From Squalus acanthias (lineage: Eukaryota): DNA of 64,000 nucleotides. The translations under genes and the position numbers were made by a program. The notes beneath the pieces were generated by a model. That model worked only from the letters and a program-made list of their open reading frames with translations. It was not told the DNA's origin and did no database searches. The stretch covers positions 149,298,001 through 149,362,000 of the forward strand of contig CM059431.1 in assembly GCA_030390025.1 (NCBI GenBank), given 5' to 3'. Shown one piece after another: positions 6,181-54,629 of the stretch; position 1 is the stretch's first letter; every line of letters begins with the position of its first letter.

Positions 6181-6357
6181 ATATCCAATATAATCCTATG
6201 TAATCCTATGAAACCCTTGCAATTACTTTACTCCTCTAGGCTTTCTGTAGTAGTGGGCTCTCAGCATTAGACAAAAGCTTCCCTTATTTCCATTCTTCTT
6301 CCCTGTATGCTTTTTGACATCCAGTGGGCCCTAAATTTGAGAGTCTCATCCTTTTTG

Positions 6358-18972: not shown

Positions 18973-18974
18973 GG

Positions 18975-19170
18975 CAATGATGTGGAGATGCCGGTGTTGG
19001 ACTGGGATGGACAAAAACGAGAAGTCGCACAACACCAGGTTATAGTCCAGCAGTTTTAACTGAAATTACGAGCTTTCGGAGTGCTGCTCCTTCGTCAGGT
19101 ACAGTGAGGGAATATAAATAATTTACAAAGCACATATAGACAGAGAACATAAAGACAAAGCACATGTAAA
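18975..19170 (-). mobile_element. Penelope-like terminal fragment (family B)
   Basis: Matches the termini at 42904-43030 and 35654-35774 (GATGTGGAGATGCCGGTGTTGGACTGGG...CACCAGGTTATAGTCC); contains a hammerhead motif. Confidence 0.75.
19066..19102 (-). ncRNA. Minimal hammerhead ribozyme motif (Penelope-associated)
   Basis: Reverse strand reads GUAC-CUGACGA-A-GGAGC AGC ACUCC-GAAA-GCUC-GUAA: core CUGANGA/GAAA, stem I UAC/GUA, stem II with one mismatch, palindromic AGCU in stem III. Confidence 0.65.
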
Positions 19171-19175
19171 CATTT

Positions 19176-22792: not shown

Positions 22793-23577
22793 TAAGCTTC
22801 GAACACCTAAAGGAGAGACACGAGTCTGCTTGCTAACAGCTGAACTGACTACAGGAATAGCAGGAGTCAACAGAAAAATGACTAGCGATAATTAGCTTAC
22901 ATCAGCAGAAAACTTCAAAGGAAATACATCTGAAAATGGGTAAAAAAATTGGATTTTCAAATGGGTTGATAGATTCGGTGTAAAGGGGCAACCCGATTCT
23001 TGTCTTCAGAGGCAGGCTCTGTAAGTCTACAACTCTTTGTATCTCGGGGATCAAGGTACTTGTATTTGAGTTTGGTGGATATCCTGGAATAAACTAAGAA
23101 CTGTAAAACTAGCTAAGTTAAGATTTGAGAATAAGGATCTCTGATAATAAAATTGTAAGATTTCTGTTTTTGGAACTGTTAATGTTGCGATTGAATCATC
23201 AACTGTAAATTACATGTCGGTTCATTAATAAATCTATTTCTTTTTAGAATTGTGTCAAATAGTATTTCTGTATCAAATTCGCAAACGTAATCTCTGTACA
23301 CTTTTTGGTGAGAAGTTGCAGAATTCTGGGGGAGTTTTCCGGACCCCCATAATATCCGGAATGTTACAGTCCAGCTAAACTGATTAAAAGTGCTATCTGG
23401 AGGATGGTAACATCTATCGGTTGTTCCTTTCCTTTAGTGAGAGTTAGTCTCGACCTTAACACCCAATTCATTGTCTTTAGGATTCGGCTACCTCAAACTT
23501 TAGTTGAAAGTGAATGTCTGAGGAATACGCCTGATCAGGTGTAGCCCTAAAGGGGTTAGGACAATAACTATCGCTTC

Positions 23578-26500
23578 AGAGAGACTCTCTCCTTAAAATA
23601 GGTCCCTGAAGGGGATACACGCACTTTAAAAAGGGTCGCTGATGGTGCGACTCTCTGTTAAACTTGGGCCTCTGATGGTGAAAATCACTCTTTAAAAGGA
23701 CTCCCTGTTAGAAAGACTCCCTCTTTAAAAGGGATCCCTGATGGTGAGACTTCTTCTTTAAAAGTGATCCCTAATGGGGATATTCTCACTTTGAAAGATG
23801 GCCCTGGTGGTGAGACTCGCTCTTTAAGAGGTGTCCCTGATGTTGAGACGCTCTCTTTAAAAATGATCCCTGATGATAAGACTCCCTCTTTAAAACTGGT
23901 CCCGGATGGTAAACCTCTATTTAAATGGACACCCTAATAGAATGACTCCCTCTTTAAAAGCTCTCTGATAAAGAGACTCCCTCTTTAAAAGTTGACGCTG
24001 ATTTTGAGACTCCCTCTTTAAAAGCGTTCCATATGTTGAAACTCAATCTTTAACAGGTGTATACTGATGGTTAGACTCAAATTAAAAGGGATCGCTGATA
24101 GAAAGACTCCCTCTTTAAAAGGGCTCCCTGAAGGTGAGTCTCCCTCTTTAAAAGGGGTCCCTGATGGGGAGACACCCTCTTTAAAAGGTTTCCCTGATAG
24201 AAAGACTTCCTGTTTAAAAGGGTGTCTGACGGTGAGACTTCATCTTTAAAAGGGTTCCATGATGGTGAGACTGTATCTTTAAAAGTTGTCTCTGAAGGCG
24301 AGACTGTCTCTTCCAAAGGGTTCCCTGATGGTGAGCCTCTTTAAAAGGGGTCCCCAATGGGGAGATTCTCTTTTTAAAAGGCGTCCCTGATGGTGAGACG
24401 CCCTCATTAAAAGGGATCCCTGATGATGAGACTCCCTCTGTAAAAGGGGTTCCTGATGGAGAGGCTCCCTCTTCAAAAGGGGTCCCTATTGGGGAGACTC
24501 CCTCTTAAAATTGGGTCCTGATGGGGAGACACCCTCTTCAAAAGGGGTCCCTGTTGATACACACCCTCTTTGAAAGGAGTCCGTGATGGAGAGACTCTTT
24601 CTTTAATAGGGGTCCCTGATGGAGAAACATCATCTTTAAAAGGGATCTCTGATGGTGAGACTCACTCTTTAAAACGGCGTCCCAGATGGCAAGACTTACA
24701 TTAAAATGGCTCGCTGATAGAAAGACTCCCTCTTTAAAAGTGCTCCCTGATGTTGAGACTCCCTCTTAAATAGTAGTCCCTGATGCTGAAGCACCCGCAT
24801 CAAAATGGGTCCCTGATGGTGAGAGTGCCTCTTTAAAAGATGTCCTTATAGGGGGGAATCTCTCCTTAAAAGGATTTGCTAAAAGAAAGACGCCCTCTTT
24901 AAAAGGAGTCCCTGATAGATAGACTTTCTCTTTAAAATGCGTCCCCGAGGGTGAGACACCCTCTATAAAATGGATCCCTGATAGAAAGACTCCATCTTTA
25001 AATGGGGTACCTGATGCTATGACACCGTCTTGATAAGGGTACCTGATATTGAGAATCCCTCTTTAAAATGGGTCCCCGGTAGAGAGACTCTCTCACTAAT
25101 AGTGATCCCTGATACACGCTCATTAAATGTGGACCCTAATGGTGAGATTATCTCTTTAAATGGGCTCTGATGGTGAGACGTCCTCTTTAAAAGGAACTCA
25201 TTATGGTGAGACTCCCGCTTTAAAAGGGGCCCCTGATGGTGAGACTCTCTTTAAAAGGGGTCCCTGTTGGGGAGACACCCTCTTAAAAAGTGGGCCCTGA
25301 TGTTTAGACTCCCTCTTTACAAGGAGCCCCTGAAGAAGACACCCTCTTTAAAAGGGGTCACTGATGCTAATACTCACTTTAAAATGGCTCCCTGACAGAA
25401 AGACTCTCTCTTTAAAATGGACACTGATGGTGAAATTCTCTCTTTAAAAGGGATCCCTGATGGTGTGACTCCCTCTTTAATAGGAGTCCCAGATGTTGAG
25501 ACTCCCACTTTAAATGTGGTCACTGATGGTGAGATTCCCTCTTTAATCGGAATACCTGATGCTGAAACATCCACTTCAAAAGTGGTCCCTGATTGTGAGT
25601 CTGCCACTTTAAAAGTGTCCCTAATGGGGAGACTCTCACTTTATGGTGTCCCTGATAGAAAGACGCCCTCTTTAAAAGGGGTCATTGATAGAAAGACTCT
25701 CCCTTTAAAAGAGGTCCATGATGGTGAGACTCCCTCTTCAAAAGGGGTCCTTGAGAGAAAGTCTCTCTCTTTAAAAGGGTCCCTGATGGTGAGACTCCCT
25801 CTTTAAAAGAGGTCCCTAAAGGTGAAAAATTATCTTTAAAAGCGCTCCTTGATGTTGAGCTTCCACTTTAAAAGTGTCCCTAATGGGGCGACTCTCTTTA
25901 TGGGGTCTCTGATAGAAAAACGCCCTCTTTAAAAGGTGTCTCTGATATAAAGACTCTCTCTTTAAAATGAGTCCCCTAATGGTGAGACACCCTCTTCAAA
26001 AGGGGGCCTTGTGTTTGAGACTTTCTCTTTAAAAGGGATCGCTGATGGTAAGAATTTCGTTAAAAGGGCTCCCTGATAGAAAGACTCCCTCTCTTTAAAA
26101 GGGAACCTTGATGGTGAGACTCCCTCTTTAAAAGGAATCCCCGATGGTAAGACTCTCTCTTTAAAACGGGTCCTCATCTTAAGCCTCCCCCTTTAAAAAG
26201 TGTCACTGATGATGAGACTATCTTTAAAATGTGATACACCCTCTTTAACAGGGGTCCCTGATAGAAAGACGTCCTCTTTAAAAGGGGTACCTGATAGGAA
26301 GACTCTCTCTTTAAAATGGATCCCCGAGCGTGAAACTCCTTCTTAAAAAGGGTCCCTGACAGAAAACTGTTTTTAAATAGGGTCCCTGTTGGAGGGACTC
26401 CCTCTTTAAAATGGGTCCCTGATGCTGAAACACCCACCTTAAAAGGGGTCACTGATGTTGAGACTCTCTCTTTAAAAGTGGTCCCTGATGTTGAGACTGT

Positions 26501-27320
26501 CTCTTTAAATTGCTCCCTGATGGTGAGACTCCCTCTTTAATTGGAGTCCCTGATGCTGAAACACCCTCTTTAAAGGGGGCCTGATGGTGAGCCTCTTTAA
26601 AAGGGTTCCCTAATGGGGATACCCTCTCTTTAAAAGGGGTCCCTGATAGAAAGACTCTCTCTTTAAGAGGAGTCCCCGAGGGTGAGTCTCCCTCCTTAAA
26701 AGGGGTCCCTGATAGACTCTCTCTTTAAAAGTGGTCACTGATAGTGAGACTCCCTCTTTAATAGGGTTCCCTGATGGGAAGATTCCCTCTTTAAAAGGGT
26801 TCCCTGATGGTGAGACTCCCTTTAATAGGGGACCCTGATGGTGAGACACCCTGTTTAAAAGATTTCCCTGATGGTGAGACTCTTTCTTTAAAAGGGGTCC
26901 CTGATGGGTATACTCCCTCATTAAAAGGGGCCCCTGATGGTGAGACGCTCTCTTTAAAAGGGTCGCTGATGCTGAAACAGCCTCTTTCAAAGGGCTTCCT
27001 GATAGTGAGACTCCCTCTTTAAAAGTGGTCCTTGATGGCGAGACTCTCTCTTTAAAAGGGGTCCCTGACAGGATGACACCCTCTTTAAAATTGGTCCCTG
27101 ATGGTGAGATCATCATTAAAACGGGTACCTGATGGTGAGACTCCCTGTTTAAATGGGATCCTTGATGGTGAGACACTCTCTTAAAAAGGGGTCCCTGATG
27201 GTGAGACTCTCTCTTTAAAAGGTGTCCCTGATGGTGAGGCAATCTCTTTAAATGGGTCCCTGATGGTGAGACTCACTCTTTAAAAGGGGTCCCTGAGGGA
27301 GAGACTATCTCTTTAAAATA
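23578..27320. repeat. 33-bp tandem satellite, block 3
   Basis: Same unit, more degenerate. Confidence 0.96.
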
Positions 27321-27322
27321 TT

Positions 27323-30300
27323 GTCATAGAGTTATACAGCCAAGAAGAGGCCCTTCGGCCCATCATTTCTGCGCCGGCCTTCAAGCCCTATCAACTCTAA
27401 TCCCATTTTCCAGAATATGGTCCGTAGACATGTATGCTATGTCGTTTCAAGTGCTCGTCGAAATGGTTCATGAATGTTGTGACAGTTCCTACATTTACCA
27501 AACTTTCAGGCAGTGAGTTCCAGATTCCAACCGCTCTCTGAGGTGATTTTTTTTCCCCTCATATGCGCTCTGCACCTCCTGCCACTTAAATTGAAACTAT
27601 TCCCCTTGGTTATTGAACCCTCTACTAAGGGGAAAATATCCTTTCTATCTACCCTATCTGTGCCCCTCATATTTTTGTACACCTCAATCAGGTCCACCCT
27701 CAGCCACCTGTGTTCTAAGGAAAACAACCCCAGCCTGTCCAGTCTCTCTTCATAGCTGAAGCACTCATGCCCAGGTAACATCCTGGTGATCTCCTCTGCA
27801 CCCTCTCCAATGCAATCACATCCTTCCTATAGTGTGTCGACCATAACGGCACACAGTATTCCAGCTGTGGCCTAACTTGCATTATGTACAGCTCCATCAT
27901 AACCTCCCTGCTCGTTTATTCTATGCCTCGGCTAATGAATGCAAGTATTCCATATGCCTTCTTAACCACTTATCTACCTGTCCTGCTGCCTACACAGATC
28001 TATGTACATGCAAACCAAGTTTTTTCTGATCCTCTGTCCTACCTAGGGCATTACCATTCATTGTGTATTCCCTTGCCTAGTTCGTCCTCCCAAAATGCAT
28101 CACCTCACACTTTGCAGTGTTAAATTTCATTTGCCAATGTTCTGCCCATCTGACCAAACAGTCAATATCGTCCTGTAGCCTGAGGCTTCCCTCCTCGCTA
28201 TTTACCACTCCACCAATTTTCGTGCCATCAGTGGACTTACTGATCATGCCTTCTGCATCCTAATCTAAATCATTAATGTATACTACAAACAGCAAGTGAC
28301 CCAGCACCGATGCCTGCGGTACACCACTGGACACAGGCATCCAGTCACAAAAACAGCCTTCGACCATCATCCGCTGCCTCCTGCCACTAAGCCACTTTTA
28401 GATCCAATGTGCCAAATTGCCCTGGATCCCATGGTCTCTTACCTCCTTGATCAGTCTCCCATGCGTGACATTGTCAAAAGCCTTACTGAAGTCCATGTCG
28501 ATCACATCAACTACTCTACCCACATCCGCACATCTAGTCATCCCCTCGAAAAATTCAATCAAATTGGTAAGACATGATCTCCCCCTGACAAATCCATGCT
28601 GACTATCCTTGATGAATCCTTTCCTCTCCAAGTGGAGACTAATTCGGTCCCTCAGAATTTTTTCCAATAATTTCCCTACCACTGATGTTAGGCTCATTGG
28701 CCTGTAATTCCCTGTATTATCCCTACTACCCTTCTTGAATAATGGTACTACGGTAGCTGTTCTCCAGTCCTCTGGCACCTCCCCTGTGGACAGAGAGGTT
28801 CTGAAAATTTGTGTCAGAGCCCCTGCAATCTCCTCCCTTGCCTCACACAGCAGCGTGGGCTACCTCTCGTCTGGGCCTCGGGATTTATACACTTTTAAGC
28901 CCGCAAAAACCGGTAGCACCTCCTCCATCTCAATACTAAATTGTTCAAGTATATCACAATACCCCTGCTTGATTTCTATGCCTACATCGTCGTTCTCCAT
29001 TGTGAACACTGATGCAAAATATTCATTTAAAACCTGACCTACATCTTCCGGCTCTTCACACAGATTGGCACTTTGTTCCCTAATGGGCCGTACTCTTACC
29101 CTGGTTATCCTCTTTCCCTTAATATACTTATAAAACACCTTGGGATTTTTCTTTATTTTGCCTGCCAGTGTTTTTTCATGCCCCCTCTTCGCTCTCCTAA
29201 TTTCCTTTTTAGGTACCCGCCTGCACTTTCTGCACTCCTCTAGGCCTTCACTGTTTTTAGTCCTTTGTGTCTGCTGAAATCCTCTTTTTTTCTCCTAATC
29301 CATTCTTGTATATCCCTTGACATCCAGGGTTCCCTGGGCTTGTTGGTCCCACCCTTGACCTATACTGGAACATGTTGGCGTTGCACTCTCTCTATTTCCT
29401 TTCAGAAAGACTCCCACTGCTCTGATGTGGATTTTCCTACAAGTAGCTGTCCCCAGTCCATTTGCCCAGATCCTGCCTTTTCATATTAAAATCGGCCTTC
29501 CCCCAATTTAGAACCTTTATTTCCGGTCCATCTTTGTCCTTTTCCATAACTACCTTTAATCTCACCGAATTATGATCACTGTCACCATAATGCTCGCCTA
29601 ATGTCACTTCTACCACTTGCCTGGCTACATTCCATGGAATTAGGTCCAGTAACGCCCCCTCTCTTGTAGGATTTTCTACATGCTGGCTCAAAAAGCTTCC
29701 TGGATGAACTTTAAGCATTCCACACCCTCTAACCTTTCACACTCTGACTATCCTAGTTAATATTGGGGAAGTTGAAATCCCCTACTATTATTAACCTATT
29801 ATTTCTGCACATCTCTGAGATTTGCCGACATGTCTGTTCCTATATCTCCCCCTGACTGTTTGGGTGCCTATAGTACACTCCCAGCAAAGCGCTTGCACCC
29901 TTTTTGTTTTTAAGTTCTACCCATATGGCCTCATTAGAGGAACCTGCTAAGATATCATCCCTCCTTACAGCAGTAATTGACTCCTTGATTAATATTGCGA
30001 CACCACCTAATATTTTACACGCCCCTCTGTCTCGCCTTAAGTTTTTATACACTGGAATATTGAGCTGCCAGTTCTGCCCCTCCCTGAACCATGTCTCTGT
30101 GGTAGCAACAATATCATAGTCCCATGTGTTCATCAACACCTTCAATTCATCTGCCTTACTCGCAAGACAACTTGCATTAAAATAAATGCCATCCAGCATT
30201 GCCATACTCCCTTGTGCCGTTACATATTTGCTCTGCCTTCCAGGCTGATTGATTTTTCCTCTATATTTGGCTGTGCATCACCCCCTACTATAGCTCCACT

Positions 30301-30595
30301 CCGTATCCCATCCCCCTGCCAAGTTAGTTTAACCCCCCACCCACCACCCCCGCCACCCGCCAACTGTACTAGCAAACCACCCCGCAAGGATATTGGTCCC
30401 ATTCCGGTTCTGGTGCCATCCGTCCGACTTGTACATGTCACAACTTCCCCAGAAGCTGACCAGTGATCCAGGAAACTAAAGCCCTCCCTCCTGCAGCAAC
30501 TCTTTAGCCACGCATTCATCTATTCTATCATCCTATTCCTATGCTCATTAGCACGTGGCACCGGGATAATCCAGAGATTACAACCCTTGAGTTCC
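27323..30595 (-). mobile_element. CR1 LINE: end of ORF1 (esterase/SGNH-like), decayed ORF2 and 3' tail
   Basis: ORF1-like MNAWLKSCCRREGFSFLDHW (30220..30519); EN YFNA..DIVATTETW..GVYYRHPNS; RT YRPMSLTS..MDFSKAFD; tail is the reverse complement of GTCATAGAGTTATACAGC. Confidence 0.92.
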
Positions 30596-32302
30596 TGATA
30601 TATCGCACACACCTCACTGTAACACAATGATATACCCTGCACCACTCACTGTAACACTCTGTTATACCACACATCCATCACTGTAACTCTGTGATATACA
30701 CCACAGCCCCGAAGCACTCTTACATATCCCACACCCCTCACTGCAACTCTCTGATACACTACTCACCCAACACTGCAACACTCTGAATTCCCGCACAAAA
30801 CTCACTGTTAGACTCTGATTTACCCCACACCCCTCACTTTAACACTCTGTTATACCCCACACATCTCACTGTAGCACTCAATTTTTTCCCACAACCAATC
30901 TCTGTAACATTGATATACCTCACACCACTCACTGTAACACCCTATAATATACTCTACATCCTCACTGAAAAACACTCTGATATTCTCCACACCCCACACT
31001 GTAAGACTCTGAAGTACCCCACAATCCTCAGTGTAAAACTCCGAGATACCCCACAGCGCTCATTATAACACAATGCTATTCCCCACAGTCTTCTCTGCAA
31101 CAATCTGATGTACCCCACAACGCAGTAACCGTCTGATATATTCCACACCACTCAATGTAACGCTCTCTGATATACCCCACACCCGTCATGGTAACACTCT
31201 GATATTCCCCACACCGCTCACTGTAACACTATGAAATACTCCACACTTTAAGACGCTGATATAAACCACAAACCTCACTGTAACACACTGATAAACGCTA
31301 CACCACTCAATGTAATCCTCTGATATGTCACACATCCATAACTGTAACACTGTGACATACACCACACTCCCGACGCACTCTTACATATCCCACACCCCTC
31401 ACAGCAACACTCTGATGCAGGGCTCACCCAACACTGTAGCACTCTGATGTCCCGAAGAAACCTCACGATAACACAGTGGTATACCGCACACCACTCATTG
31501 TAAAACACTGATATTTCCCACACACCTCACTAGTAAAATTCTGATTTACCCCACACACCTCAATGTAACACTCTGATTTACCCCAGTTCCCTCACTGTTA
31601 CACTCTAATATATCCCACACCTCTCACAATAACACACTACTATTCCACACACTCTTCACAATAAAACGCCGATATACCACACACCGCTAAATGTAACACT
31701 CTGGTATGCACCAAACCTTTCAGTGCAATCCCCTGATATACCCCATACCCTCGTAAATCTCTTATATAGATCTCAGCACAAGCTGTAACACTCTAATATA
31801 CCCTACACCCTCACTGTAACACACTGATAAACACCACACGACACACTGTAACACAGTGATATACCCCCAACCCTCACTGTAACACTCTGATATACGCCAC
31901 ACACCTCACTGTAACACTCTGATATACCTCACACCACTCACTGTAACACACTGATATACTCCACACCCCTCACTGTAGCACACTGATATACTCCACACCT
32001 CTTACTGTAACACAATGATATATCCACACACCACTCACTGTAACACTCTGATATGCACACACCCATCACTGTAACACTCTGTTATACCCCAAACCCCTCA
32101 CTGTAACACAATGATATAAACCACACCCCTCATAGTAACTCTCTGATACACGCCACACCCCTCACTGCAACACTCTGATATCCTCCACACCATTCACTGT
32201 GACACTCTGATATAGACCACACCACTCACTGTAACACACTGATATACACCACACCACTCACTGTAACACACTGATATACACCGCAACCCCGAAGCAATCT
32301 TA

Positions 32303-33374
32303 CGACTGTAAAGGGCGTTGGTGAGACCACACCTGGAATACTGCGTCCAGATTTGGTCTCCTTTTTTAATGACGGATATACTTACATTGGAGACATTTCA
32401 GAGAAGGTTCACGAGGTTGATTCCGAAGATGACGTGGTTATCTTATGAAGAAAGGTTGATCAGGTTGTGGCTATACTCATTGTACTTTAGACGAATGACA
32501 GGTTATCTTATTGAAATATATAAGATTCTAAATGAGTTGGACAGCGTAAATGCATAGAGGATGTTTCCTTTCGTGGGGGAATCCAGAACATGGTGGCATA
32601 ACCCTTTGATATACCCTACACCCCGCACTATAATACTCTGATATACCCCACACCGCTCACTGTAACACTCTGATATACACCACACCCCGCACTGTAACAG
32701 TCATATATACCACACAGCCCTCACTGCAACCCTCTGATATACCATACACCCCTCACTGTAACACTTTGATATACCCTTAACCACTCACTGTAACATGTCT
32801 GATATACACCACATCCCTCATTGTAAAACTATTATATATCCACCAGCCCTCACTGTAACACGATGATATAGACCACACCCCTCACTGTAACACTCTGCTT
32901 TACCCCACACCCCTCACTGTAACACTCTGATACAAGCCACACCGGAAGCAATATTATGTATTCCACACCCCTCACTGCTACACTGATACACTACACACCC
33001 AACACTGTTACTATCTGATATCCCCCACTACCCTCATTGTAACACTCTGATTTACGCCACACCACTCACTGCAACACTGATATACCCCACAGGGTACCCT
33101 TTTAAATTGGAAATGAGGGGCAATTTCTTCACTCAGAGGCTCGTGAATATTTTGAAGTCACTTCCCCAGAGAGCTGTGAATGCTGTGTCAATGGATATAC
33201 TTCAGGTGGATTTAGACAGATTTTTAAACGATAAGGGAGGCATGGGTTATGGGGAGCGGGCAGAGATGTGGTGTTGAGGCAAAGATCAGATCAGCCATGA
33301 TCTTATTGAAAGGCGGAGCAGGCACGAGGGGCCAAATGATCTACTTCTTGTCCTACGTGTGATGTCTTTTGTCC
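32303..33374 (+). mobile_element. CR1 3' fragment split in two (32303-32603 and 33091-33374) by satellite
   Basis: The first piece (LVRPHLEYCVQ..) ends at SRTWWHN; the second resumes at PFKLEMRGNFFTQR and carries the CR1 tail. Confidence 0.85.
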
Positions 33375-34098
33375 TATATACACCATACTCCTCACTGTAA
33401 AACACTCGTATTCCGCACACTCTTCATGTAAAGCTTTGATATACTCTACACCACTCACTATAATATTCTGGTATACCACGCAACACTGACTGTAACACTC
33501 TGATACATATCACACTCTGGGCTGTTACTCCCCACACCACACACTTTAGTACTGATATACCTCGCACCACTCACTGTAAAACACTCTGATATACTGCACC
33601 CCACTCACTGTAACACACATTGATATACTCCTTAACCCACACTGAAGCACTCTGAAACACCCACATTCCTCACTTTAACACTCTGAAATACCGCACACTC
33701 CTCACGGTAAAAGTCTGATATCCCCCACACCGCTCACTGTAACACTCTAATATACCCCACAGCCCACACTGTAACACTCTGGTTTACCCCACACCGCTCA
33801 CTGTAAAACTCTGATATATCCCACACCCTTCATTGCAAAAGTCTGATTTACCACACATCCCTCAATGTAACAGTCTGATATACCCCACACCCCTCACTGT
33901 AACAGTCTGATATAATAGCATTCCTCACTGTAATACACTCTGATATATCTCACAGCCCTCACGGTAACACTCAGATATACCCTAAATCCCTCACTGTAAC
34001 ACTATGATATACTCCACACCACACACTGTAACACACTGATTTACCCAAGCCCCACCACTGTTACTGTCTGATTAACCCCACATCCCTCACAGTAACAC

Positions 34099-36395
34099 GA
34101 ATGGACTGGGATCAGCGAATTGTAGGAAAATCCACATCAGAGCAGTGGGATCCATTCAGAACGGAAATATAGAGAGTACAACGCCAAAATGTTCCCGTGA
34201 AGTTCAAGGGTGGGATCAACATGCGCAGGGATCCCTGGATGTCAAGGGAAAAACAAGAATGGATTGGGAGAAAAAGGGAGGCTTCTGGGCAGTTAGAAAG
34301 GACATAAAAAACAGTGGAAGCCCTAGAGGAGTATAGAATGTGCAGGTGGGAAACTGAAAAAGAAATTAGGAGAGCGAAGAGGGGGCATGAAAAAACACTG
34401 GCAGGCAAAATAAAGAAAAATCCCAAGGTGTTTTATAAGTATATTAAGGGCAAGAGCATAACCAGGGAAAGAGTAGGGCACATTGGGGACCAAAGTGGCA
34501 AGCTGTGTGTAGAGCTGGAAGATGTAGGTCAGGTTTTAAATGAATATTTTGCATCTGTGTTCACTATGGATATGGACGATGTAGGCATAGGTATCATGCA
34601 GGGGGATTGTGATATTGTTGAACAAATTAGTATTGAGAGGGATGAGATACAAGCGGTTTTAGCGGTCTTAAATGTGGCTAATTCCCCAGGCCCTGACGGA
34701 ATGTATCCCAGGCTGCTTTGTGAGGCAAGGGAGGAGATTGCAGGTGCTCTGACACAAATTTTCAGAACCTCTCTGGCCACAGGTGAGGTGCCAGAGAACT
34801 GGAGACCAGCTAACGTAGTACCATTTTTCAAGAAGTGTAGTAGGGACAAAGCAGGGAATTAGAGGACAGCGAGCCTAAAATCAGTGGTAGGCTCATTACT
34901 AGAACAAATTCATTCGGACAGAATTAGTCTCCACTTGGAGACGCAAGGAGTAATCAAGAATAGTCAGCATGGCTTTGTCAGGGGGAGATCATGTCTGGCC
35001 AATTTGATTGAATATTTCGAGGGGGTGACTAGGTGTGTGAATGAGGATAGTGCAGTTGATGTAGTCTACATGGACTTCAGTAAGGCTTTTGACAAAGTCC
35101 CACATGGGAGACTGGTCAAGAAGTTAAGTGTCCATACGATCCAGGGCAATTTGGCACATTGGATTCAAAATTGGCTTAGTGGAAGGAGGCAGATGGAATT
35201 GGTCGAAGATTGTTTTTGTGACTGGAAGCCTGTGTCCATTGGTGTACCGCAGGGATCGCAGGGTCCTTTGCTTTTTGTAGTGTACATTAATGATTTAGAT
35301 ATGAATGTAGGAGGTATGATCAGTAAGATCGTAGATGACACGAAAATTGGTGGAGTGGTAAATAGCGAGGAGGGAAGCCACAGGCTACAGTACGATATAG
35401 ACGAGATGATTAGATGGGCAGATCAGTGGCAAATGGAATTTATCCCTGAAAAGTATGTGGGGATGCATTTTGAGAGGACAAACAAGGCAAGGACATTCAC
35501 AATGAATGGTAGGATCCTAGGAACGACGGAGGATCACAGGGACCTTGGTGTGCATGAACATAGATCCCTGAAGGCAGTATAACAGTTTGATAAGCTGGTT
35601 AAAAAGGCATAATCGGTTACTTGCCTACATTACCAGAGGCATAGAATATAAGATTGAGAGGTCGCACAACACCAGGTTATAGTCCAACAGTTTTATTTGA
35701 AATCACAAGCTTTCGGAGCTATCGATTGCCCTCTCAATTTTGTCCACCCCAGTCCAACACCGGCATCTCCGCATCATAGAATATAAGAGCAGGGAGGTTA
35801 TGATGGAGCTGTAAAACACGCTAGTTAGGCCACAGCTGAAATACTGTGTGAAGTTCTGGTCACCACGCTATAGGACGGATGTGATTGCATTGGAGAGGGT
35901 GCAGAGGACATTCACCAGCATGTTACCTGGCCTGGAGCGCTTCAGCTATGAAGAGAGACTGGACAGGCTGGTGTTGTTTTCCTTGGAGCAGTGAACGCTG
36001 TGGGGGGACCTGATTGAGTTGTACAAAATTATGAGGGACATAGATAGGGTAGATAGAAAGGAACTTTTCCCCTGAGTACAGGGGTAAATAACCAGGGGGC
36101 ATAGTTTCAAGGTAAGGGGCAGGAGGTTTAGATGGGAATTGAGGAAAAAAAATTCACCCAGATGGTGGTTGGAATCTGGAACTCACTGCCTGAATTTGTG
36201 GTAGAGGCAGGAACCCTCACAACATTCAAGAAGCATTTAGATGAGCACTTGAAACGCCATAGCAACAAAGGCTACGGACCAAGTGCTGGAAAATGGTATC
36301 AGAATAGACAGGGCTTGATGGCCGGCGCGGACACGATGTGCCAAAGGGCCTCTTTCTGTGCTGTATAACTCTATGACTCAGTGACTCTATGACTA
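34099..36395 (+). mobile_element. CR1 LINE, 5'-truncated (same family as 27323-30595, opposite orientation)
   Basis: ORFs 34314..34862 and 34884..35582 (YMDFSKAFDKVPHG, GVPQGS, VDDTK); tail CTGTATAACTCTATGACT. Confidence 0.92.
35654..35774. mobile_element. ~120-bp Penelope-derived micro-insertion with a target-site duplication, inside the CR1
   Basis: CATAGAATATAAGA at 35640-35653 and 35775-35788. The insert is two family-B terminal pieces in opposite orientation. Confidence 0.8.
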
Positions 36396-40389: not shown

Positions 40390-41290
40390 TCATCCTTTAA
40401 TGAATTTTACAGTAAGAGTGAAGGGATATTTCGCTACATTCTTCAACTGCTCTCTGAACTTAGTCTGGGTCATGGCATAAATCCCAGTATTTGTGCAGCA
40501 ACTCAGCATCTGCAGCATCAATCCCAATTCCATTAGATAAATAGGTGGATGTACAGAACCATAACCAAAAAAACATATCCGGGCCCATATATAAAACAAC
40601 GTAAAGATTGCCCATAACAGGATGAAGTTGCCGGAGATAACAAGCAGTAAAATAATAGATTTCCTGCGGCTCTCCATCTCTGGGTCTCTAGGACTGTCCC
40701 CACTGCTGGGACCCCGGAGTCTCCTGCGGGCTCTGCTGGACACTAATATGTGTCTGACGGTGACAGCATTGAGCAGCAGAATCACAACAAATGGGTCCCC
40801 GCGGTGAGAATATAATGAAGAAGCTCAATTGTTCCCCAGACCGTTGAATACACAGAATCCACTGTTACACCACAAAACCAGGGCATGTTGAAAAGCATAT
40901 ACAAATCTGTGAACATAAAATACCAGAAAATGTTCTTTGTACCGCTCAGCACAGTCACTGTTCCCAGAACCTCAGCCGCCGTTTTCTGGGTGCAATATTT
41001 AGTTGTCAGCTTCTGGTGACAAATGGCCACAAATCGATCAAATGTGAAAGTGACAGTGAACCAGACAGAACAGTCTGTGACTGCATAAAGCAGGACGGCA
41101 TGGATATTACACACGGGGATGGACTCCACGAAACTAAACTGTTCCCTAAATACAATCGGAATCTGCCTCAACATCAGATCAAGGATAACGACCAGCAGAT
41201 CCGCCGCTGCCATGGCAACCAGGTAGCGAGCGACACATTTAGAGAGACCGCACTTTCCCCGGGACAGGATCACAATCGTCACTAAGTTTA
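40390..41290 (-). pseudogene. GPR139-like: Second coding exon (end of TM1 to TM7 and stop) of a GPR139-like GPCR, with one -1 frameshift at about 40795
   Basis: Acceptor TTTCCCTTGCTCAAAG|TA (phase 1). NLVTIVILSRGKCGLS, YLVAMAAADLLVVI, TFDRFVAICH, then in a new frame ILLLNAVTVRHIL..RRKSIILL..SCCTNTGIYAMTQTKFR, TGA at 40390. With the 53.5 kb exon, 181+901+1 nt = 361 codons. A sequencing error in the C4 run is possible. Confidence 0.88.
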
Positions 41291-42604
41291 CTTTGAGCAA
41301 GGGAAATAAACGGGGACATTATACATCAGGCTGGGAGCAATAGCAGCAGATTGAAGGAATTCGGGGAGAAATCTGCAATGCATTAGTGACATTCAATGAT
41401 ATAATCTAATTCTATTACCCATGAAGCTGAATACAATGTTTATTGTAAGAATAGTCGGAAATACATTGTGGAATTAATAAATGAATCGGGGATAACAATA
41501 ACATGAAAGTAACAGATGTTTGATCAATGAGAGATTAGATGATAGCTCTACATTTAGCCCAGCAGACAAAAGCACCACCCGAGGTACCAGGGACACAAAG
41601 GATCAGAACTTCTCAGGAAGCCTTCGTGTCGCGGGATCAGTCAGCATTTGGAGCGGTGCAATTCGCCTCACTGCCCCTGTGTTAGTGAGGGGGAAATCCC
41701 GCTTAGATTCATGCTCCTGGTTAGAATATCTATTACATTTAGAACTGAAAATGAATGCAACGGCAAAATACAGAAACTGCAACCTTGGCGTGCAATAAAT
41801 ACTGTCAATTGCATTTAAAATGTATGGCTGTAATATGCAAGTGTAAGATAATAAATACAAGCGCACTGCAGTTATAAAGATAACTGGGTGTAAGAAGTGT
41901 TTAGAAGAGTGAGTTTTCTGCAGTTTTGTTGAAATACTCAAATTGTGGCTCATTGAAAGGAAGATTTTGCAAGTAACATTGCAAGGACTGGAATCTGAAA
42001 TAAAATAATTAGTTATCATTGACCAGGTAATAACCCACTAAATGTATTTATTTACATCATAATCAGGCGACTCATCCCACAGGCAACAAGCCGTCGAAGG
42101 CGTTCGGAAAGTATCTGAACACAAATGGAAGAGATTTATCCTTCTACTTTTTCACCTGTTGGTTTGCAACTTATGAAGAGAATATTAGTCGAGAAAATAT
42201 GAAAGGATTTCCTTATCCTCAGTACTTCAGTTCCAATCAGCTGGGGTTGTTTTTCGTGCAGCACAGCAGGAGACAATAGAGAATCACTCTGGTTCTCACT
42301 GAGAGATCCACTGAACTGTGTGAGGTGGGCATGGGCTCCAATTGTACATTCAAAACAAAGTTTGGAAATAAACGCATTGAAATATGGCTGACTGAACGTT
42401 TTCTGAGAATGTAAGTTATCATTGTAATCCTATTCTAACCTTCAGAGGCAGAGCCACTGATGCGGAGCTGGAGATGTTGGGAAATGAGACACTGACTGAA
42501 ACTGAATGATTAGCGGATATTTCAGACATTTAAAGATGTGGATGTGATCTGCCAGGATTCGTTCCTGTGACTCTGTGTCAGTAGCCATACCGAGCATTCG
42601 GTGA

Positions 42605-42750
42605 AAACAAAAACAAATTAATGCGGATGCTGGAAATCTGAAATGAGAAATTAAAATGGTTTAAATACTCAGCAGGTCAGGCAGCATCTGTGGAGAGAGA
42701 GAGAGAAATAACGTTTCAGGTCGATAATCTTTCGCCATTACTTGAAAATT
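42605..42750 (-). mobile_element. Penelope family A terminal fragment (decayed hammerhead)
   Basis: Reverse complement resembles 20010-20135 (GACCTGAAACGTT..CTCTCTCCACAGATGCTGCC). Confidence 0.7.
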
Positions 42751-42993
42751 CTCCTCAACCAAGACAACATTCTTCTGATCGGTTACAAATGTTCAGTGTA
42801 GATAGCAGAACGGAATTATTTCAGCAAAGAGTCTCGTGCAATATATTTTCTTGAGATGAATATAGAAAATTGAATCTTGAGAAAATGTAACTCCTTTCGA
42901 ATCCATGATGTGGAGATGCCGGTGTTGGACTGGGGTGGAGAAATGTGAGAAGTCGCACAACACTGGGTTATAGTCCAACAGCTTTATTTGAAA

Positions 42994-43030
42994 TCACAAG
43001 CTTTCGGAGCGCTGCTCTTTCATCAGGTGA
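42994..43030 (-). ncRNA. Minimal hammerhead ribozyme motif
   Basis: Reverse strand reads UCAC-CUGAUGA-A-AGAGC AGC GCUCC-GAAA-GCUU-GUGA. Confidence 0.65.
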
Positions 43031-43373
43031 AGTGAAGAGATGTATATCGGCACAGCATGTATAGTCAGAGAACACTGCCAGATGATTACAGTTAATCTTT
43101 CTCACTGCCCTCGGCAGAGAGATAATCACGGCAATCCAAGGTGTGGATGGTGTAAAAACAGGTCAGTCAGGAATAAATTACATCAAAGACAATGAGTTGG
43201 GGTCACAAGGGGTCAAATGTGGCAGATGCTGGTGTCTGTATGGAAAACAAAAAAACTTTTAGCGGGATTATCTCTCTGCCGAGGTGTGATAAAGGGGAGT
43301 TAGAAAGATTAACTGTAATCATATGGCAGTGTTCTCTGACTATATATTCTGTGCCAATATGAATCTCTTCAAT

Positions 43374-43410
43374 ACACCTGACGAAGGAGCAGCGCTCCGA
43401 AAGCTTGTGA
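43374..43410 (+). ncRNA. Minimal hammerhead ribozyme motif (best preserved copy)
   Basis: ACAC-CUGACGA-A-GGAGC AGC GCUCC-GAAA-GCUU-GUGA: perfect 5-bp stem II, stem I CAC/GUG. Confidence 0.7.
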
Positions 43411-43737
43411 TTTCAAATAAAGCTGTTGGACTATAACCTGGTGTTGTGCGACTTCTCAGATTTGTCCTTTAGAATCAACAGCCGGCAGCTGTCAGATGGG
43501 CTGGGGAATGAAAAGGAGGGAAATACAGTAAAACATGATATATAGAATTAAAAGCTGGATACAGAGACTTACCAGGGATACCGATAGCAGCGAGGATGTG
43601 CCAGAAATTTTAAACAAGAACACTTGCATTAACAAAGATGCAACAACTTGAAACACATAATACCATTAATAACTGAGTATGCCACGGTAAATAGGAAGAA
43701 TAATATTACAGAATTAATAACTGGCCATGTTACTTAA

Positions 43738-44623
43738 TAGGAACACTAACAGCAGCGAGAAGGGGCTAGAAAATGTTTTGTATATCCTCCCCTCCCCTTT
43801 CAGCATTCCGAAGGAACCGCACCCTCCACAACACGCTGGTCCACTCCTCAATCACCCCCAACATACACTTCCCCTCTCCTCGGCACCTTCCCGTGCAAGC
43901 GCAGAAGATGCGACGCCTGAACTTTTAACTTCTCCCTTCCCACTGTGCAGGGCCCCAAACACTCCTCCCAGATAAAACAGCGATTTACTTGTACTTCTTG
44001 CAAGTCAGTATACAGTATTCGCTGCTCAAGTTGCGGTCTACTATACACTGGGGAAAACAAATGCAGATTGGGTAATCGGTTTCTGAACACTGCCGTTCAG
44101 TTGGACTCGTGACTTCGAGCTTCCGGTCTCCTGTCACATAAATTATTTGCTCTCCCTCCCACTCTGACCTCTCTGTCCACGGCTTGATACAGCGTTCCAA
44201 TGAAGCTCAATTTAAGCTCGAGCAACAGCACCTCATCATTCTATTGGGCACTTTACAGCCTTCTGTACTCAACATTCAGTTCCGCAATTTCAGATCATAA
44301 TCTGGCCGCTGTTTTTTCAGGCGGCAGCTGCTGATGTTTCTACCATCCACATTTGCAACATTTAACCACTCTTCCTTTCCACATTATCACAGGCCATCAC
44401 TTTTGTTCCTTCGTTCCCTCACCCCCTTTTCCCAAAACCTGTACTTGCTTGAAATCTTTTACATCTCTCGCTTTTTCCAGTTCTGAGGAAGGGTCACAGA
44501 ACTGAAACGGTAACTCTCTTTCTCTCGCCACAATGCTGCCTGACATGCTGAGTGTTTTCACCATTTTATGTTGTTATTCCAAAGTATTATTGTTAACTGT
44601 CACTGTTCAAGTATACTTTCCAT
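43738..44623 (-). pseudogene. Destroyed GPCR first exon split by a Penelope fragment
   Basis: 5' part has ATG at 44623 (MESILEQ*QLTIILW). 3' part 43738-43786 reads DIQNIF*PLLAAVSVP with a dead donor (A|TTAAGT). Upstream 44680-44740 resembles the 5'UTR/TATA region of the intact exons. Confidence 0.65.
43787..44578 (+). mobile_element. Penelope family A 3' fragment (GIY-YIG remnant, degenerate hammerhead at about 44479-44515)
   Basis: Colinear with about 19220-20110. Confidence 0.85.
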
Positions 44624-44749
44624 AGAGATCCACAAACTCACGACATCCCTACTGTGTGAGGCTGGTGGCCTTTTTGCTGGAGGCATCGCGCTGATTGTAT
44701 GAGGTCACAGAGTGAAGGGAGCTACTTATTTAGAGCAGAGGAGGGCGTT

Positions 44750-46020
44750 TCCAAGGGGCCCCAAGATTAAACCGCTCCCGCCTCAGTACAGAAAATTGAC
44801 TCCCAGGGACGCCAAGATAACACTGCTCCCACCTGAGTCCAGGAATAGCATTCCCTGGGCAGCCTAGATTACACTGCTCCCGCATCAGTCCAGGAATATA
44901 ATTCCTAGGGACACCTGGATTACACAGCTTCCGCCTCAGTCCAGGAATATAATTCTTGGGGTCACCAAGATTGCACTGCTGCCTGCTCAGTCCAGGAATT
45001 TCATGTTGAGGGCCCACTAGATTATACGGCTCCCGCTTCAGTCCAAACATTTCATTTCTTGGGCCAGCGAGATTACACTGCTCCCATATTATGCTAGGAA
45101 TTTTATTCCCAGGGCTGCATCGATTACACTGCTGCTGACTCAGTCCTCGTATGTGATTCCGAGGGATGCCTCGATTTCACTGCTGGCGCCTCAGTTCAGG
45201 AATTTAATTCCCAGGCCAGCCAAGATTGCACTGTTCCTGCCTCAGTCTAGGAAATTAAACACCTGGGCCGCCTAGATGAGAATGCTCCCGCCTCAGTTCA
45301 GGAATTTCACTCTCAGGGCGCCGACATTACACTGTTTAGAACATAAGATCATAAGACATCGGAGCAGGAATAGGTCATTTGTCCCCTAGAGCCTGCTCCG
45401 CCATTAAATAAGATTATGGCTGATCTGATCTTGGCCTCAACTCCACTTCCCTGCCCACTCTCCATAACTGTTGACTCCCTTATCGTTCAAAATTCTGTCT
45501 ATCTCCACCTTAAATATATTCAATGATCCAGCCTCCACAGCTCTCTGGGGAAGAGAATTCCAAAGATTCACGAACCTCTGAGAGAAGAAATTCTTCCTCA
45601 TTTCCGAATTAAAAGGGTGCCCCCTTATACTGAAATTATGCCCCCTAGTTCTAGATTCTACCACGAGGGGAAACATCCTCTCTGCCTCTAACCTGTCAAG
45701 CCCCTTCAGAATCTTAGATGTTTCAATAAGATCCCCTCTCATTCTTCTAAACTACAATGTGTATAGGCCCAAACTGTTCAACCTTTCTTCATAAGATAAC
45801 ATCTAGGTGAGAATGCTCCCGCCTCAGTCCAGGAATGTCATTCCCAGGGCCATCGAGATTACACTGCTCCCGTCTCTGTCGAGGAATTCCATTCCCTGTG
45901 CCTCCTACATAATACTGCTTCTGCCTCAGTACAGGAATTTCATTCCCAGGGCCGACTGGATTACACTGCTCCCACCTCAGTCCAAGAATGTCAATCCCAG
46001 GGCAGACTAGATTACACTAC
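44750..46020. repeat. 51-bp tandem repeat (GATTACACTGCTCCCGCCTCAGTCCAGGAATTTCATTCCCAGGGC..), interrupted by CR1
   Basis: Unit starts at 44765, 44816, 44867; about 11 units to 45335 and about 4 units at 45806-46020. Confidence 0.9.
45337..45800 (-). mobile_element. CR1 3' end
   Basis: ORF 45437..45742 (MRGDLIETSKILKGLDR..NFFSQR..NLWNSLP). Confidence 0.88.
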
Positions 46021-46024
46021 ACCG

Positions 46025-47700
46025 GCCTTTGTCCATGGTCCATGGTGAAATGGGCCGTTACATGGCAGAAAAAATTGAACACAGAGAAGTGTGAAGTGAT
46101 ATATTTTGGTAGGAAGCATGAGAAGAGGCAATATAAACTGAAGTGGGTGCACGATCAGACAGACCTGGGGTGCACTTATGCAATTTTTTGAAGGTGCAGG
46201 ACAAGTTGCGACAGATGCACATCAAGCATGCAGAGTTATTTTTAGAGCTGAGCAGGTTAAGAAACATAGAATAATAGATTCACAGAGCTGTACGGCACAG
46301 AAGGAGGTCATTCGGCCCATTGTGTCTGCACCGGCGCAAAAGGGCTATCCAGCCTAAACACACTTTCCAGCTCTTGTTCCGTAACCTTGCAAGCTGTGCC
46401 ACTTCAAGTGCACATCCAAGTACTTTTTAATGTGATGAGGGTTCCTGCCTCTACCACTCTTTCGGGCAGTGAGTTCCAGACTCCCATCATCCACTGGGTA
46501 AAACTAATTCTCAACTCGCCTCGAATCCTTCTACCATTTAGGTTAAATCTATGCCCCTGACTATTGACCACTCTGCAGAGGGAAATAGCTGCTCCCTATC
46601 CGATCTGTCTAGGCCGCTCATACTTTTAAGCACCTCAATTAAATCTTCCCTCAGCCTCCTCTGTTACAAAGAAAGCAATCCCAGACTGTCCAATCTATCC
46701 TCATAGCTAAAATTGTCCAGTCCTGGCAACCTCCTAGTAAATCTCTTCTGTTCCCTCTCTAGATGTGGCCTAACTAGTGTTTTATACAGTTCTACCATCT
46801 CCTCTCTTTTGTTATATTCTATGCCTCGGCTAATAAAGGAGAGTATCTGTATACCTTCTTACCCACAATATCTACCTGTCCTGCTATCGTCTGGGATCCA
46901 TGGGCATGCACTTCAAGGTCGCTCTGTTGCTCTGCATTTCTCAGTATCCTACCATTTATTGTGTATTCACTTGCCTTGTTAGCCTTCCGCACTTCTCCAG
47001 ATTGAATTCCATCTGCCCCTTTTCTGCCCTCCTGAAAACTTCCTGCAGGCTACAGCTTTCTTCCTCACTATCAACCACATGGCCAATTTATGTATCATCT
47101 GCAAACGTTTTAATCATGCCCCAAAATTGAGGTCTAAATCATTGATGTCTACCACAAAAAGCAAGGCACCTGTTACTGAGCGCTGCAGAACCCCGCTGAA
47201 AACAGTCTTCCAGTCACAAAAACACCCATCGACCATTATCCTTTGCTTCCTGACACTGAGCCAATTTTGAATCCAACTCGGATCCAATGCTCTTTTACTG
47301 TTTTGACCAACCTCTGTCATTTGGGACCTTGGCAAAGGTCTTGCTGATATCTATGTGGATTACATCAAATGCACTACCCTCATCGAACCTCCTCGTTACT
47401 TCATCATAAAATTCAATCAAATTACTCAGACACAACCTTCTCTTGCTTCTCTTAACAGGCTGGGATACATTTCACCGGCCCTGGCGAATTATCGACATTC
47501 AAAGATGCAATATCTCTTAATACATTCTCTGTCTCTATGCTAACCACATCTAATATTTAACATTCTTCCTCTTTAACTACAATGTCAGCATTGACCCTCT
47601 TTTCTGTGAAGACAGACACAAAGTATCCATAAGAACCATACACATGTCTTCCGCCTCCACACACAGGTTAACCTTTTGCTCTCCAATCAGCCCTAATTCA
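46025..47700. mobile_element. Decayed CR1 fragments (plus 46025-46260; minus about 46265-47700)
   Basis: NTEKCEVIYFGRK on the plus strand; WIQNWLSVRKQRIMVDG..SGVLQ on the minus strand. Confidence 0.75.
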
Positions 47701-52055: not shown

Positions 52056-53554
52056 TAATTTTATTCTTTTTTTGAACATATTTGCTCTGAACCCTAACTA
52101 TCTCCTCCTTAAATGCCTCCCATTGCTCTGACACTGATTTACATTCAAGTAGCTGTTTCCAGTTCACTTTTGCTAAATCGCATATCAGCTTAGTAAAATA
52201 CTCCTTTTCCCGATTGAAAGCTTTTACACCAGATCTAACGTTGTCCTTTTTCATGAGGGGAGATTTAATATAGATGATCAAAATTTTTATTGGGATTTGA
52301 TAGGGTGCATAATCGAATTATTTTCCAGTGGCAGAATGACACCGTTTTAAGGTAATAGGATAAAAGAACCAGAGGAGAGATGAGGAGAATTCTCTTCATG
52401 CATTGAGTTGCTGTGATCTCGAATGCACTGTCTGAGAACGTGCTGGAAGTAGATTCAATAGCAACTTTCGAAAGGGAATGGAATAATAGTTGAAGGAATA
52501 CTTTTTACAGGGCTCTGGCTAAAGAGTAGGAGTAATGATACAGCTCTGCTAAAGTGATGTCACGGACACGATCGGCTGAATGTCCTCCTTCTGTGCTGTA
52601 CCATTCGATTATTCTATGAGCAAGAGACATAAGGAAAGAAGAGGGAGAGAGAGTGACAGAGAGAAAGAAAAATAGAGACAGAAAGACTGGGAGAGGTACA
52701 GCAGGGAAGACATGTAATTAAAAGGGGAATTGGATAAATACTTGAAGGGTAACAATTTGCAGGCCTATGGAAAAAGGACTCGGGAATGGGACGAATTGGA
52801 GGGTTGAGGCCATGGTGGGATTGGATCTTAAGGATGAGAATATTCAGATCGAGGCATTTCCAAATCTGGAGCAAATGTTTCTCAGCGAGCAAAAGGATGA
52901 TGGGTTAACGGGACATGATGAGTGTTAGGATATGGGCAGCAGAGCTCTGGATGAGCTCTAGTTTATGGAGGCTTTTAAATGTGTGGCCAGCAAGGAAAAT
53001 ATTGGAGTAGTCGTGTCAGGATTTAACAAAGGCACGGGTGAGGGTTTATGCAGCGGAAGGGCTGAGTCAGGGTGGAGACGATCGATATTATGGAGGTGCC
53101 AGTAGGCTGGACTGATGATTCAGAGGATATGAGTTCGGAACTCAGCTCAGGGTGAAAGAAAATGCCGTGGCTGTGAACAGTCTGGTTCATCTGCAGACAT
53201 TGGCCAGGGAGGGGGACTGAATTGTTGCATAACAATTGATTTTTTGTCGAGGACAGAAGACAATGGCTTTGGTCTTCCCAAGACTGAAATGATAAACACA
53301 ATAACACAGTGAGACCTGGTTTTACAGATCTAATTGCTGGATGTAGAGATTTAAATGTAACACCAACAGCAGCAAAAATGAGAGCGTAACTTACGAGAAT
53401 AGTAATACAGCATGCAAAGTTTTTCAGAGTTAATAGGTGGTTACAGAGACATACCAGGAACAGCAATCGCATCAAGGAGGGGAGAGTAAAAGGCAAGAAG
53501 AGTAATGCAGTTAAACAAAGTTTATAGACATAATAGCTGAATACAGAAACTTAC

Positions 53555-53735
53555 CAGGAACGCCAACAGCAGCAAGGAGGGGGTAGTAAATGAATTGAAT
53601 AATCATAAGTGCGAACTGGATCTGTTGTTCTAATGATAGTTCATCATAATGTACAGACAAATATTCAACCACCCAGGATATACTCCTGACCATTGTTGTA
53701 ACATTCCAATCTACTGTTCTCAGCTTCTGATCCAT
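53555..53735 (-). CDS. GPR139-like: First coding exon of a GPR139-like GPCR; probable partner of exon 40390-41290 (intron about 12.3 kb)
   Basis: ATG at 53735; MDQKLRTVDWNVTTMVRS...IQFIYYPLLAAVGVP; donor G|GTAAGT, phase 1. G+TA gives Val, reading AVGVP-V-NLVTIVIL. Confidence 0.82.
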
Positions 53736-54629
53736 TGTTGTAACATTCCAATCTACTGTTCTCAGATTCCGGCTCCCTCTCTGTGGAACATCGTGCTGAT
53801 TCCTATTAGTACCGCAGCTGATGCTCTCACTGACGCTATGGTATAACACATTGAAAGGAGTCCCTTATTAATAGAAGAGTGAAACCCTGCACTGATGCAA
53901 TTAGGGTCCATGGAGAATGACATTAATTACAGTCACTGAACAAACAGCTTCAGTTAACCCGTTGAGACTGACATTAATCGTAGTCAATGAACAAACAGCT
54001 TCAGTTAACCCTTTTCAATCCAGCAGGTTTTGTAGCACAGTAGAGTAGAATATTTCCGCGGTCGGGGTGGTCTGTATCAGGATTTATGAGGGAAGGAATG
54101 ATGGAAATAGCGCATGATCTGTCCAGAATCTTTCAATCCACCTTGGATATTGGAGCGGTGCCGGAGGATTGTAGGGTTGCAGGTGTTACACACAGTTTAA
54201 AAAAGGAGAGAGGGATAACCCCTGTAACTATAGGCCTGTCAGGCTAACGTCGGTGGTGCGGGAACTTCTCGAGGCCATATTCCCGGAGAAAATTAACTGT
54301 CACTTGGAAAGAAACATGGATTAATAATTGACAACGATCACGGACATGTTAACGGCAAAGTGTGAATGACAATCTTGATTGAGTTCTTTGATGAAGTAAT
54401 GGAGATGGTTGATGAGTGTAGTTTGGTTGACGCTGTTTATATGGACTTTAAATGCATTTGATAAAGTTCATTGAATAAACCTGTTAGGACCAAAGGGTCA
54501 GTGGCAGAATGGATTTGACATTGGCTTAGGGACAGAAAACAGAGAGTAGTGGGGAATGTTTGTTGTTCAGCGTGGTGGGAAGTATACACGGGGGACCTCC
54601 AGGAGTCGCTATTCGGACCTCTAAACTTA

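Follow-up and report, generated by a model that had tools for sequence, protein, structure and literature searches.

Typical insertions of Penelope-like elements (PLEs) carry an inverted, 5'-truncated copy at their 5' end and a tail of 30-40 bp that is often found at one end only (Craig et al., 2021; PMC8557442). In the insertions described by Arkhipova et al. (2013; PMC3846280) the copies stand head to head, the inverted pLTR is 37 bp shorter, the tail measures 31 bp and the target duplications span 8-10 bp. In vitro work on a PLE of an anole has equated the tail with the stretch between two starts of reverse transcription, and in the same system the ribozyme requires the element's protein, while its cleavage is dispensable for insertion (Frangieh et al., 2024; PMC11167929). 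Minimal PLE hammerheads possess an extra base and a conserved G10.1-C11.1 pair, give no cleavage as monomers and a low one as dimers, and occur as dual motifs on opposite strands, 100-700 bp apart (Cervera and de la Pena, 2014; PMC4209133); the hosts named in the text covered from that paper are fishes, coelacanth, frog and reptiles, and sharks are absent from it. Cleavage of hammerhead dimers is also the subject of Lunse et al. (2017), as cited in a review (PMC6765202). Retrozymes, for their part, consist of tandem hammerhead units on the same strand (Cervera and de la Pena, 2020; PMC7229834; Li et al., preprint 10.64898/2026.07.22.740005). The portions of these papers covered here are the source of all comparisons made with them below.

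Here we examine a fold-back lying in the window, by which we mean the whole 64,000-nt stretch of the genome of Squalus acanthias that was analysed, and we conclude that it is very probably an insertion, dead on arrival, that the machinery of an EN+ Penelope-like retroelement produced in a shark. The locus is a real but ordinary decayed copy, and a new instance of a described PLE insertion pattern. Its tail at one end, its head-to-head inverted copy and its hammerhead within the terminal repeat fit that pattern, which upholds the Penelope-like origin put forward in a first-pass annotation of this DNA; variable duplication length and 5' truncation are further points in common with the complex insertions of EN+ PLEs. 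The shark copy departs from these in being too truncated for an ORF and in having a tail of about 42 nt, against the 30-40 quoted.

The motifs of the shark element share with the minimal hammerheads of PMC4209133 a type I core, an extra base 9/10.1, a G10.1-C11.1 pair (in the family), a palindrome at 15.2-16.2 and a short stem I, and they resemble the dual motifs of that paper in lying 376 nt apart on opposite strands; in contrast, stem II has 5 bp in the shark and 7-8 in Schistosoma, and one of the two shark motifs lacks G10.1. The comparison with Poseidon of Anolis carolinensis (PMC11167929) concerns the ends: both have two genomic ends one tail apart and a hammerhead just upstream of the tail. 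In the anole, however, the ORF begins at stem II and the ribozyme is protein-dependent, whereas the shark stretch from hammerhead to tail has no open frame, and an ORF started within the hammerhead as in the anole element hits stops within a few codons. Non-LTR retrozymes are, like the shark element, short, non-coding, hammerhead-bearing, related to PLE pLTRs and of similar unit size, but they form head-to-tail tandems with same-strand, mostly canonical motifs, while the shark has an inverted pair of minimal ones. We rejected an assignment to the non-LTR retrozymes on the opposite strands of the motifs and the lack of a dominant continuation past the tail. Among the papers that literature searches listed, none dealt specifically with the hammerhead of this shark family; supplements may list it.

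Results

The element is built from two inverted arms (Table 1). Local alignment within the window pairs 42937-43130 with 43263-43467 at 86% over 205 columns (E 2e-68), with 177 of the 194 aligned letters identical and one 11-nt gap, so that the fold-back seen in the first-pass annotation holds. The ends are asymmetric, with 33-42 extra bases (the tail) at the left end only, and the right arm extends 6-9 nt past the usual tail-less end of the family. Read along the minus strand, a 205-nt inverted copy is followed by a junction near 43262 and then by a 359-nt direct copy that ends in the tail. The annotated span (42904 to 43476) was right about the start, and the element proper, of about 564 nt, ends at approximately 43464-43467, the last annotated bases being part of the target duplication. 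This duplication, claimed as 12 nt with one mismatch, is indeed present at 42892-42903 and 43465-43476, and an equally good repeat was found in none of 600 random pairs of 45-nt boxes taken from the window; its length is given here as 9-12 nt, the first three letters fitting the repeat family too. The claim that the element has no ORF also stands: the longest stop-free stretch in six frames measures 69 codons, and no ORF with reverse transcriptase (RT) and GIY-YIG was found inside the element in those frames.

Table 1. Positions of the fold-back, its parts, related copies and host exons in the window.
Feature	Position	Strand	Remarks
Third family end, 81% identical, with tail and hammerhead	18977..19149	-	abuts a different PLE family
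Second, smaller fold-back of the arm family, 124 nt	35654..35777	.	perfect 14-nt duplications 35640-35653 / 35775-35788
Host GPCR exon 2, shark GPR139-like expansion	40390..41290	-	frame change near 40800
Left copy of target-site duplication, 9-12 nt	42892..42903	.	chance control 0/600
Tail, 3' extension of about 42 nt	42904..42945	-	left end only; right arm has just its first 6-9 nt
Direct, 5'-truncated family 3' end, 359 nt (spacer, left arm and tail)	42904..43262	-	high depth, 4/4 runs
Left arm	42937..43130	-	private 11-nt deletion near 43108
Left minimal type I hammerhead, sense in GPCR pre-mRNA	42995..43030	-	A-C replaces G10.1-C11.1
Unpaired middle (spacer), 132 nt, family sequence upstream of the arm	43131..43262	-	depth, loose ends
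Head-to-head junction of direct and inverted copy	43260..43265	.	depth dip 4/4 runs; loose ends at 43266 in 3/4
Right arm, shorter inverted copy without most of the tail	43263..43467	+	
Right minimal type I hammerhead, intact core	43374..43410	+	extra A before 5-bp stem II
Right copy of target-site duplication	43465..43476	.	
Probable host GPCR exon 1, with GT donor	53555..53750	-	element thereby in intron

Contigs from four public sequencing runs (X3, X1, X7 and X8, out of 20 listed, all 20 lacking a record as RNA) were aligned to 42760-43659 at 80% likeness. These runs cover the family and not the locus itself (best word share 0.23), X8 is RNA by guess only, and depth in them does not equal copy number. 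In all four, depth over the whole element and its spacer greatly exceeds that of the unique flank, the three larger runs giving 1e5-6e6 over the element, its middle included, versus 28-537 at 42820-42879. There is no steady fall of depth along the spacer, and all four runs show a dip in the bin that holds the junction (43240-43269), which in X3 reaches 38,000 between neighbours of 195,000 and 499,000. Loose ends with unrelated flanks accumulate at 42903-42905 (X1, X3, X8) and at 43458 (X1, X3; mirror position 42946), and the family has two termini about 42 nt apart. The flanks past the tail are heterogeneous (agreement 0.38-0.47), and no tandem continuation dominates among them.

The nature of the middle follows from the loose ends at 43266 (X1, X3, X8): because they continue into spacer sequence, the spacer belongs to the family and the right arm is a truncated copy. 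A second copy of the spacer was not found in the window. We considered that it might be captured unique DNA and rejected this idea, the spacer being deep in the runs and other copies reading into it. Family loose ends at 43109 (X1, X3, X7) similarly supply the letters missing near 43108 in the left arm. Among the joints listed (15 of 290), 14 run from arm to arm, with 11 distinct breakpoints, and the remaining one is a strand change at 43266 into the spacer; such joints often arise from repeats, and it is for exactly that that they are used here. No contig bridging the junction of the main element was seen among the 32 pieces listed of about 63,000, nor an empty-site contig among the 15 joints. 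What the runs reveal is a family that is dispersed and highly repetitive, with 5' ends that vary.

Three sites of this family are present in the window. The smaller fold-back, about 7 kb from the main element and within LINE-like RT sequence, is composed of a 65-nt inverted piece without tail, an 11-nt filler and a tail end. Its inverted piece stops within stem II of the hammerhead, its tail-less end lies at the same family position as in the main element, and its junction is a different one. The tail is found again at 18977-19018 and at 35732-35777, and duplication length varies from 9-12 nt in the main element to 14 nt at 35640-35788. None of the five inner ends of the arm family within the window falls at the predicted cut site of the hammerhead. 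Exact 22-nt patterns of the family gave no match in metagenome contigs, viral contigs or prokaryote genomes, as expected for a shark repeat, and no ORF-bearing member of the family was found in the 64-kb window or in the metagenome, viral and prokaryote collections scanned.

Each arm contains the hammerhead motif that the first reading of the sequence had reported, with cores at 43378-43402 (plus strand) and 43002-43026 (minus strand). The core pattern has six matches in the window versus 0.75 expected, five of them in PLE-type ends. Both motifs follow one plan: stem I has 3-4 bp, an extra A accompanies the core, stem II has 5 bp and a palindromic AGCU stands where stem III would be. The extra base 9/10.1, G10.1-C11.1 and the palindromic 15.2-16.2 all occur in the right arm and in the copy at 19 kb, and the left arm is without G10.1; the family letter at 43018 differs from that of the left motif in all four runs. 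In the right motif stem I is down to 3 bp through a private change, and standard hammerhead numbering predicts a cut after 43406. The base at the cut position is a U, which makes a hammerhead a poor substrate. With relaxed thresholds, Rfam returned no match in 41000-45500 or in 43340-43450, and the hammerhead is therefore recognised by its anatomy and not by a curated model: the reported minimal hammerhead with palindromic stem III stands as far as anatomy goes (AGCU) and has no counterpart in the model search.

The arms differ at 17 places, of which six are private to the left, six to the right and five unassigned, as judged against family letters at 14 positions drawn from the 40 rows listed of 116. 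At the positions compared the arms have no departure from the family in common, and none of the 12 assigned differences is a paired change. Since the differences are private to each arm and none is common, the arms began alike and then decayed separately.

Equilibrium prediction, in which proteins play no part, folds the minus strand at -312 kcal/mol (z -30), a value that none of 100 shuffles matches. When the whole element is folded, stem I and stem II each have a predicted probability of 0.000 on both strands, and the predicted helices covering the motif have 52 bp (minus) and 76 bp (plus, G-U counted). Isolated pieces give stem II a probability of 0.01 to 0.6 according to context, with no clean fold, and the textbook dimer was not obtained in two-copy co-folds. 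The head-to-head order of the copies means that, whichever strand is transcribed, the antisense arm precedes the sense motif. With the motifs on opposite strands, any transcript carries one sense ribozyme plus its antisense arm, as had been anticipated; a single RNA never holds both motifs, so they cannot dimerise within one transcript.

The placement of the element in an intron of a GPCR gene is confirmed by our gene model, which puts exon 1 near 53555-53750 and exon 2 at 41290-40390 on the minus strand. The exon next to the element matches Pfam 7tm_1, and its best relatives (best 120 of 1262) are mostly probable GPR139 of sharks with 70-83% identity, the genera listed among them including Heptranchias, Heterodontus, Pristiophorus and Carcharodon. 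In alignments of six listed relatives to the window, an N-terminal exon falls near 53526-53756 and the main exon at about 41300-40396 (minus strand) in every case. All six also reveal a frame change at 40797-40800 in the main exon, either the mark of a pseudogene or an assembly error.

Other sequences accompany the gene. Decayed, internally repeated copies of GPCR exon 1 and its donor occupy 43500-43790, with a GT donor near 43567 and no open frame upstream of it; the element would be intronic also under a model that uses this exon-1-like piece. Sequence from about 900 to 10700 is duplicated in tandem almost exactly, at a period of about 5.9 kb, and the duplicated part includes a GPCR exon 1 (100% identical pieces); the duplication represents either a recent event or an assembly artefact. 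Minisatellite arrays with units of 33, 32 and 51 nt (10700-27300, 30560-34140 and 44700-46100) make up much of the window. An open stretch of 793 codons at 13621-16002 encodes endonuclease and RT and is a LINE ORF2 (Pfam RVT_1 above cut-off), and two further LINE copies, decayed and in inverted orientation, are present at about 27300-29500 and 34100-36350.

A second PLE family is present at 19171-22587, with a partial tandem, a hammerhead at 20012, a decayed RT, a Cys-rich linker and GIY-YIG, its RT and GIY-YIG matches in Pfam being weak and below cut-off; the linker suggests that it is Neptune/Nematis-like. We rejected this RT/GIY-YIG element as the parent of the arms, as its ends are without blastn similarity to the arm ends, beyond abutting one of them. 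That arm-family end (18977-19149, minus strand) is joined to it head to head near 19170. No target duplication was found around the composite at 18977-22587, which arose either as a chimeric insertion of both families or by a later insertion whose other half is gone.

Discussion

An insertion by an EN+ PLE would account for the anatomy of the locus as follows. Staggered nicks would give rise to the 9-12-nt duplication. One nicked strand would prime reverse transcription at the outer start site, so as to include the tail, and synthesis would stop after about 360 nt; the other end would be copied from an inner start site some 40 nt further in, with a stop some 205 nt on. Both pieces, each 5'-truncated, would then be joined head to head, and each arm would go on to mutate separately under neutral decay. 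We infer these priming steps, including twin priming of the main element, and we likewise take the family to descend from an ORF-bearing element. The hammerhead is present twice only because it is located in the terminal repeat (pLTR) of the family. Self-cleavage of the intronic transcript would not be expected, the sense hammerhead being buried in the predicted hairpin. Transcription of the intron would plausibly yield a passive dsRNA hairpin, and editing or dicing of that hairpin would be a by-product.

The annotation had also viewed the fold-back as a possible mobile family in its own right, and its inverted ends, its target duplication, the absence of an ORF and the abundance of fold-backs in the family all go in that direction. 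Under such a reading the whole fold-back would be the mobile unit, MITE-like or a re-retrotransposed hairpin, and it would have a fixed internal junction. Yet the ends are asymmetrical, the duplications measure 9-12 nt in one case and 14 nt in the other, and the smaller fold-back at 35654-35777 has a different junction. A family sharing the junction of the main element is contradicted by depth, which dips there, by the copies that run on from 43266 into the spacer, and by the 11 breakpoints among the 14 listed joints, so we regard this reading as very improbable; rare copies with this junction may nonetheless exist. MITEs and fold-back DNA transposons have symmetrical TIRs, a fixed duplication length and copies of uniform structure. 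We rejected an assignment to that class because the shark ends are asymmetrical, the duplications measure 9-12 and 14 nt, and the junctions vary. Even less credible, and in our opinion close to excluded, is the co-option of the insertion as a regulator of the GPCR pre-mRNA through a switch between hammerhead cleavage and a dsRNA hairpin open to ADAR or Dicer. It has in its favour the intronic position, predicted helices of 52 and 76 bp that would suffice as dsRNA substrates, and the existence of conserved intronic hammerheads in amniotes (PMC6155905, in the part covered). Nevertheless, the competition between self-cleavage and hairpin that had been proposed does not hold up: the motif on the minus strand lacks G10.1 and a partner on the same RNA, it is transcribed after the antisense arm, and its stem II has a predicted probability of 0.000. 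The arms, moreover, decayed separately, with no paired change among the 12 assigned, the host GPCR copy is frameshifted, and minimal PLE hammerheads are reported in the covered text of PMC4209133 as inactive when monomeric and weak as dimers.

A family that has no ORF of its own is more probable than these two readings, though we still hold it to be unlikely. The arms would then stem from a short non-autonomous PLE derivative of about 360 nt, retrozyme-like or SINE-like, mobilised in trans by an enzyme that could perhaps come from the adjacent Neptune/Nematis-like PLE, and the main element would still be a one-off inverted insertion. The 359 nt of the direct copy are close to the 363 bp given for the average retrozyme consensus in one chondrichthyan (10.64898/2026.07.22.740005, text covered), although that match is with an average over families. 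No linked ORF was found, an arm-family end abuts another PLE at about 19170, and the spacer shows no steady fall in depth. On the other hand, retrozymes are defined, in the portions covered of PMC7229834 and 10.64898/2026.07.22.740005, by head-to-tail tandems and same-strand hammerheads, and the heterogeneous flanks past the tail (agreement 0.38-0.47) contain no dominant tandem continuation. The PLE families of Adineta, as described in the part of PMC3846280 covered, are also without cross-mobilisation. Insertion by the machinery of an EN+ PLE remains the reading we prefer.

The listed joints raise a question about the hammerhead itself. In ten of the 14 arm-to-arm joints listed the breakpoint lies within 42989-43023, which mirrors the hammerhead (partners 43375-43394), and one of those listed has it at 42997, the mirror position of the base that immediately follows the predicted cut. 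This cluster could be due to snap-back at stem II or to cleavage by the ribozyme, and alignment bias is a further candidate, given that alignment stops are subject to the private changes of the reference and to short contigs and that the joints listed are 15 of 290. A bolder proposal, which we judge improbable, is that a family without ORF borrows the enzyme of the Neptune/Nematis-like PLE, forms chimeras with it (18977-19170) and has its fold-back junctions set by the hammerhead. If it were true, with junctions peaking at the cut genome-wide, these would constitute a fossil record of in vivo cleavage by a PLE hammerhead, with cut RNA serving as template, something that was not observed in the anole in vitro work as covered here (PMC11167929).

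A single locus such as this one matters little, as very many copies exist and this is one decayed example. It is as a population that short shark fold-backs with clean duplications are of use: their junctions and termini could test how PLEs make inverted ends, and their junctions whether the PLE hammerhead cleaves the template at all. Where such fold-backs lie in introns, they might in addition supply sharks with dsRNA, passively and on a large scale. Two leads at this population level, the joints at the mirror of the hammerhead and the cross-family abutment, are weak and may be alignment effects.

Further traces of the second family were noted around the element. A loose end of run X7 behind 43010 (four contigs) has 12 letters in common with the endonuclease region of the second family at 43968-43979, a weak hint at further cross-family chimeras. 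Ends of the second family at 42614-42748 (minus strand) and 43786-44581 (plus strand) stand head to head around the element and the GPCR exon-1-like piece. No convincing target duplication was found for a larger inverted second-family insertion with these ends that would enclose the element. Of the two, the left one reaches deeper into the family end, and the hammerheads of both are damaged.
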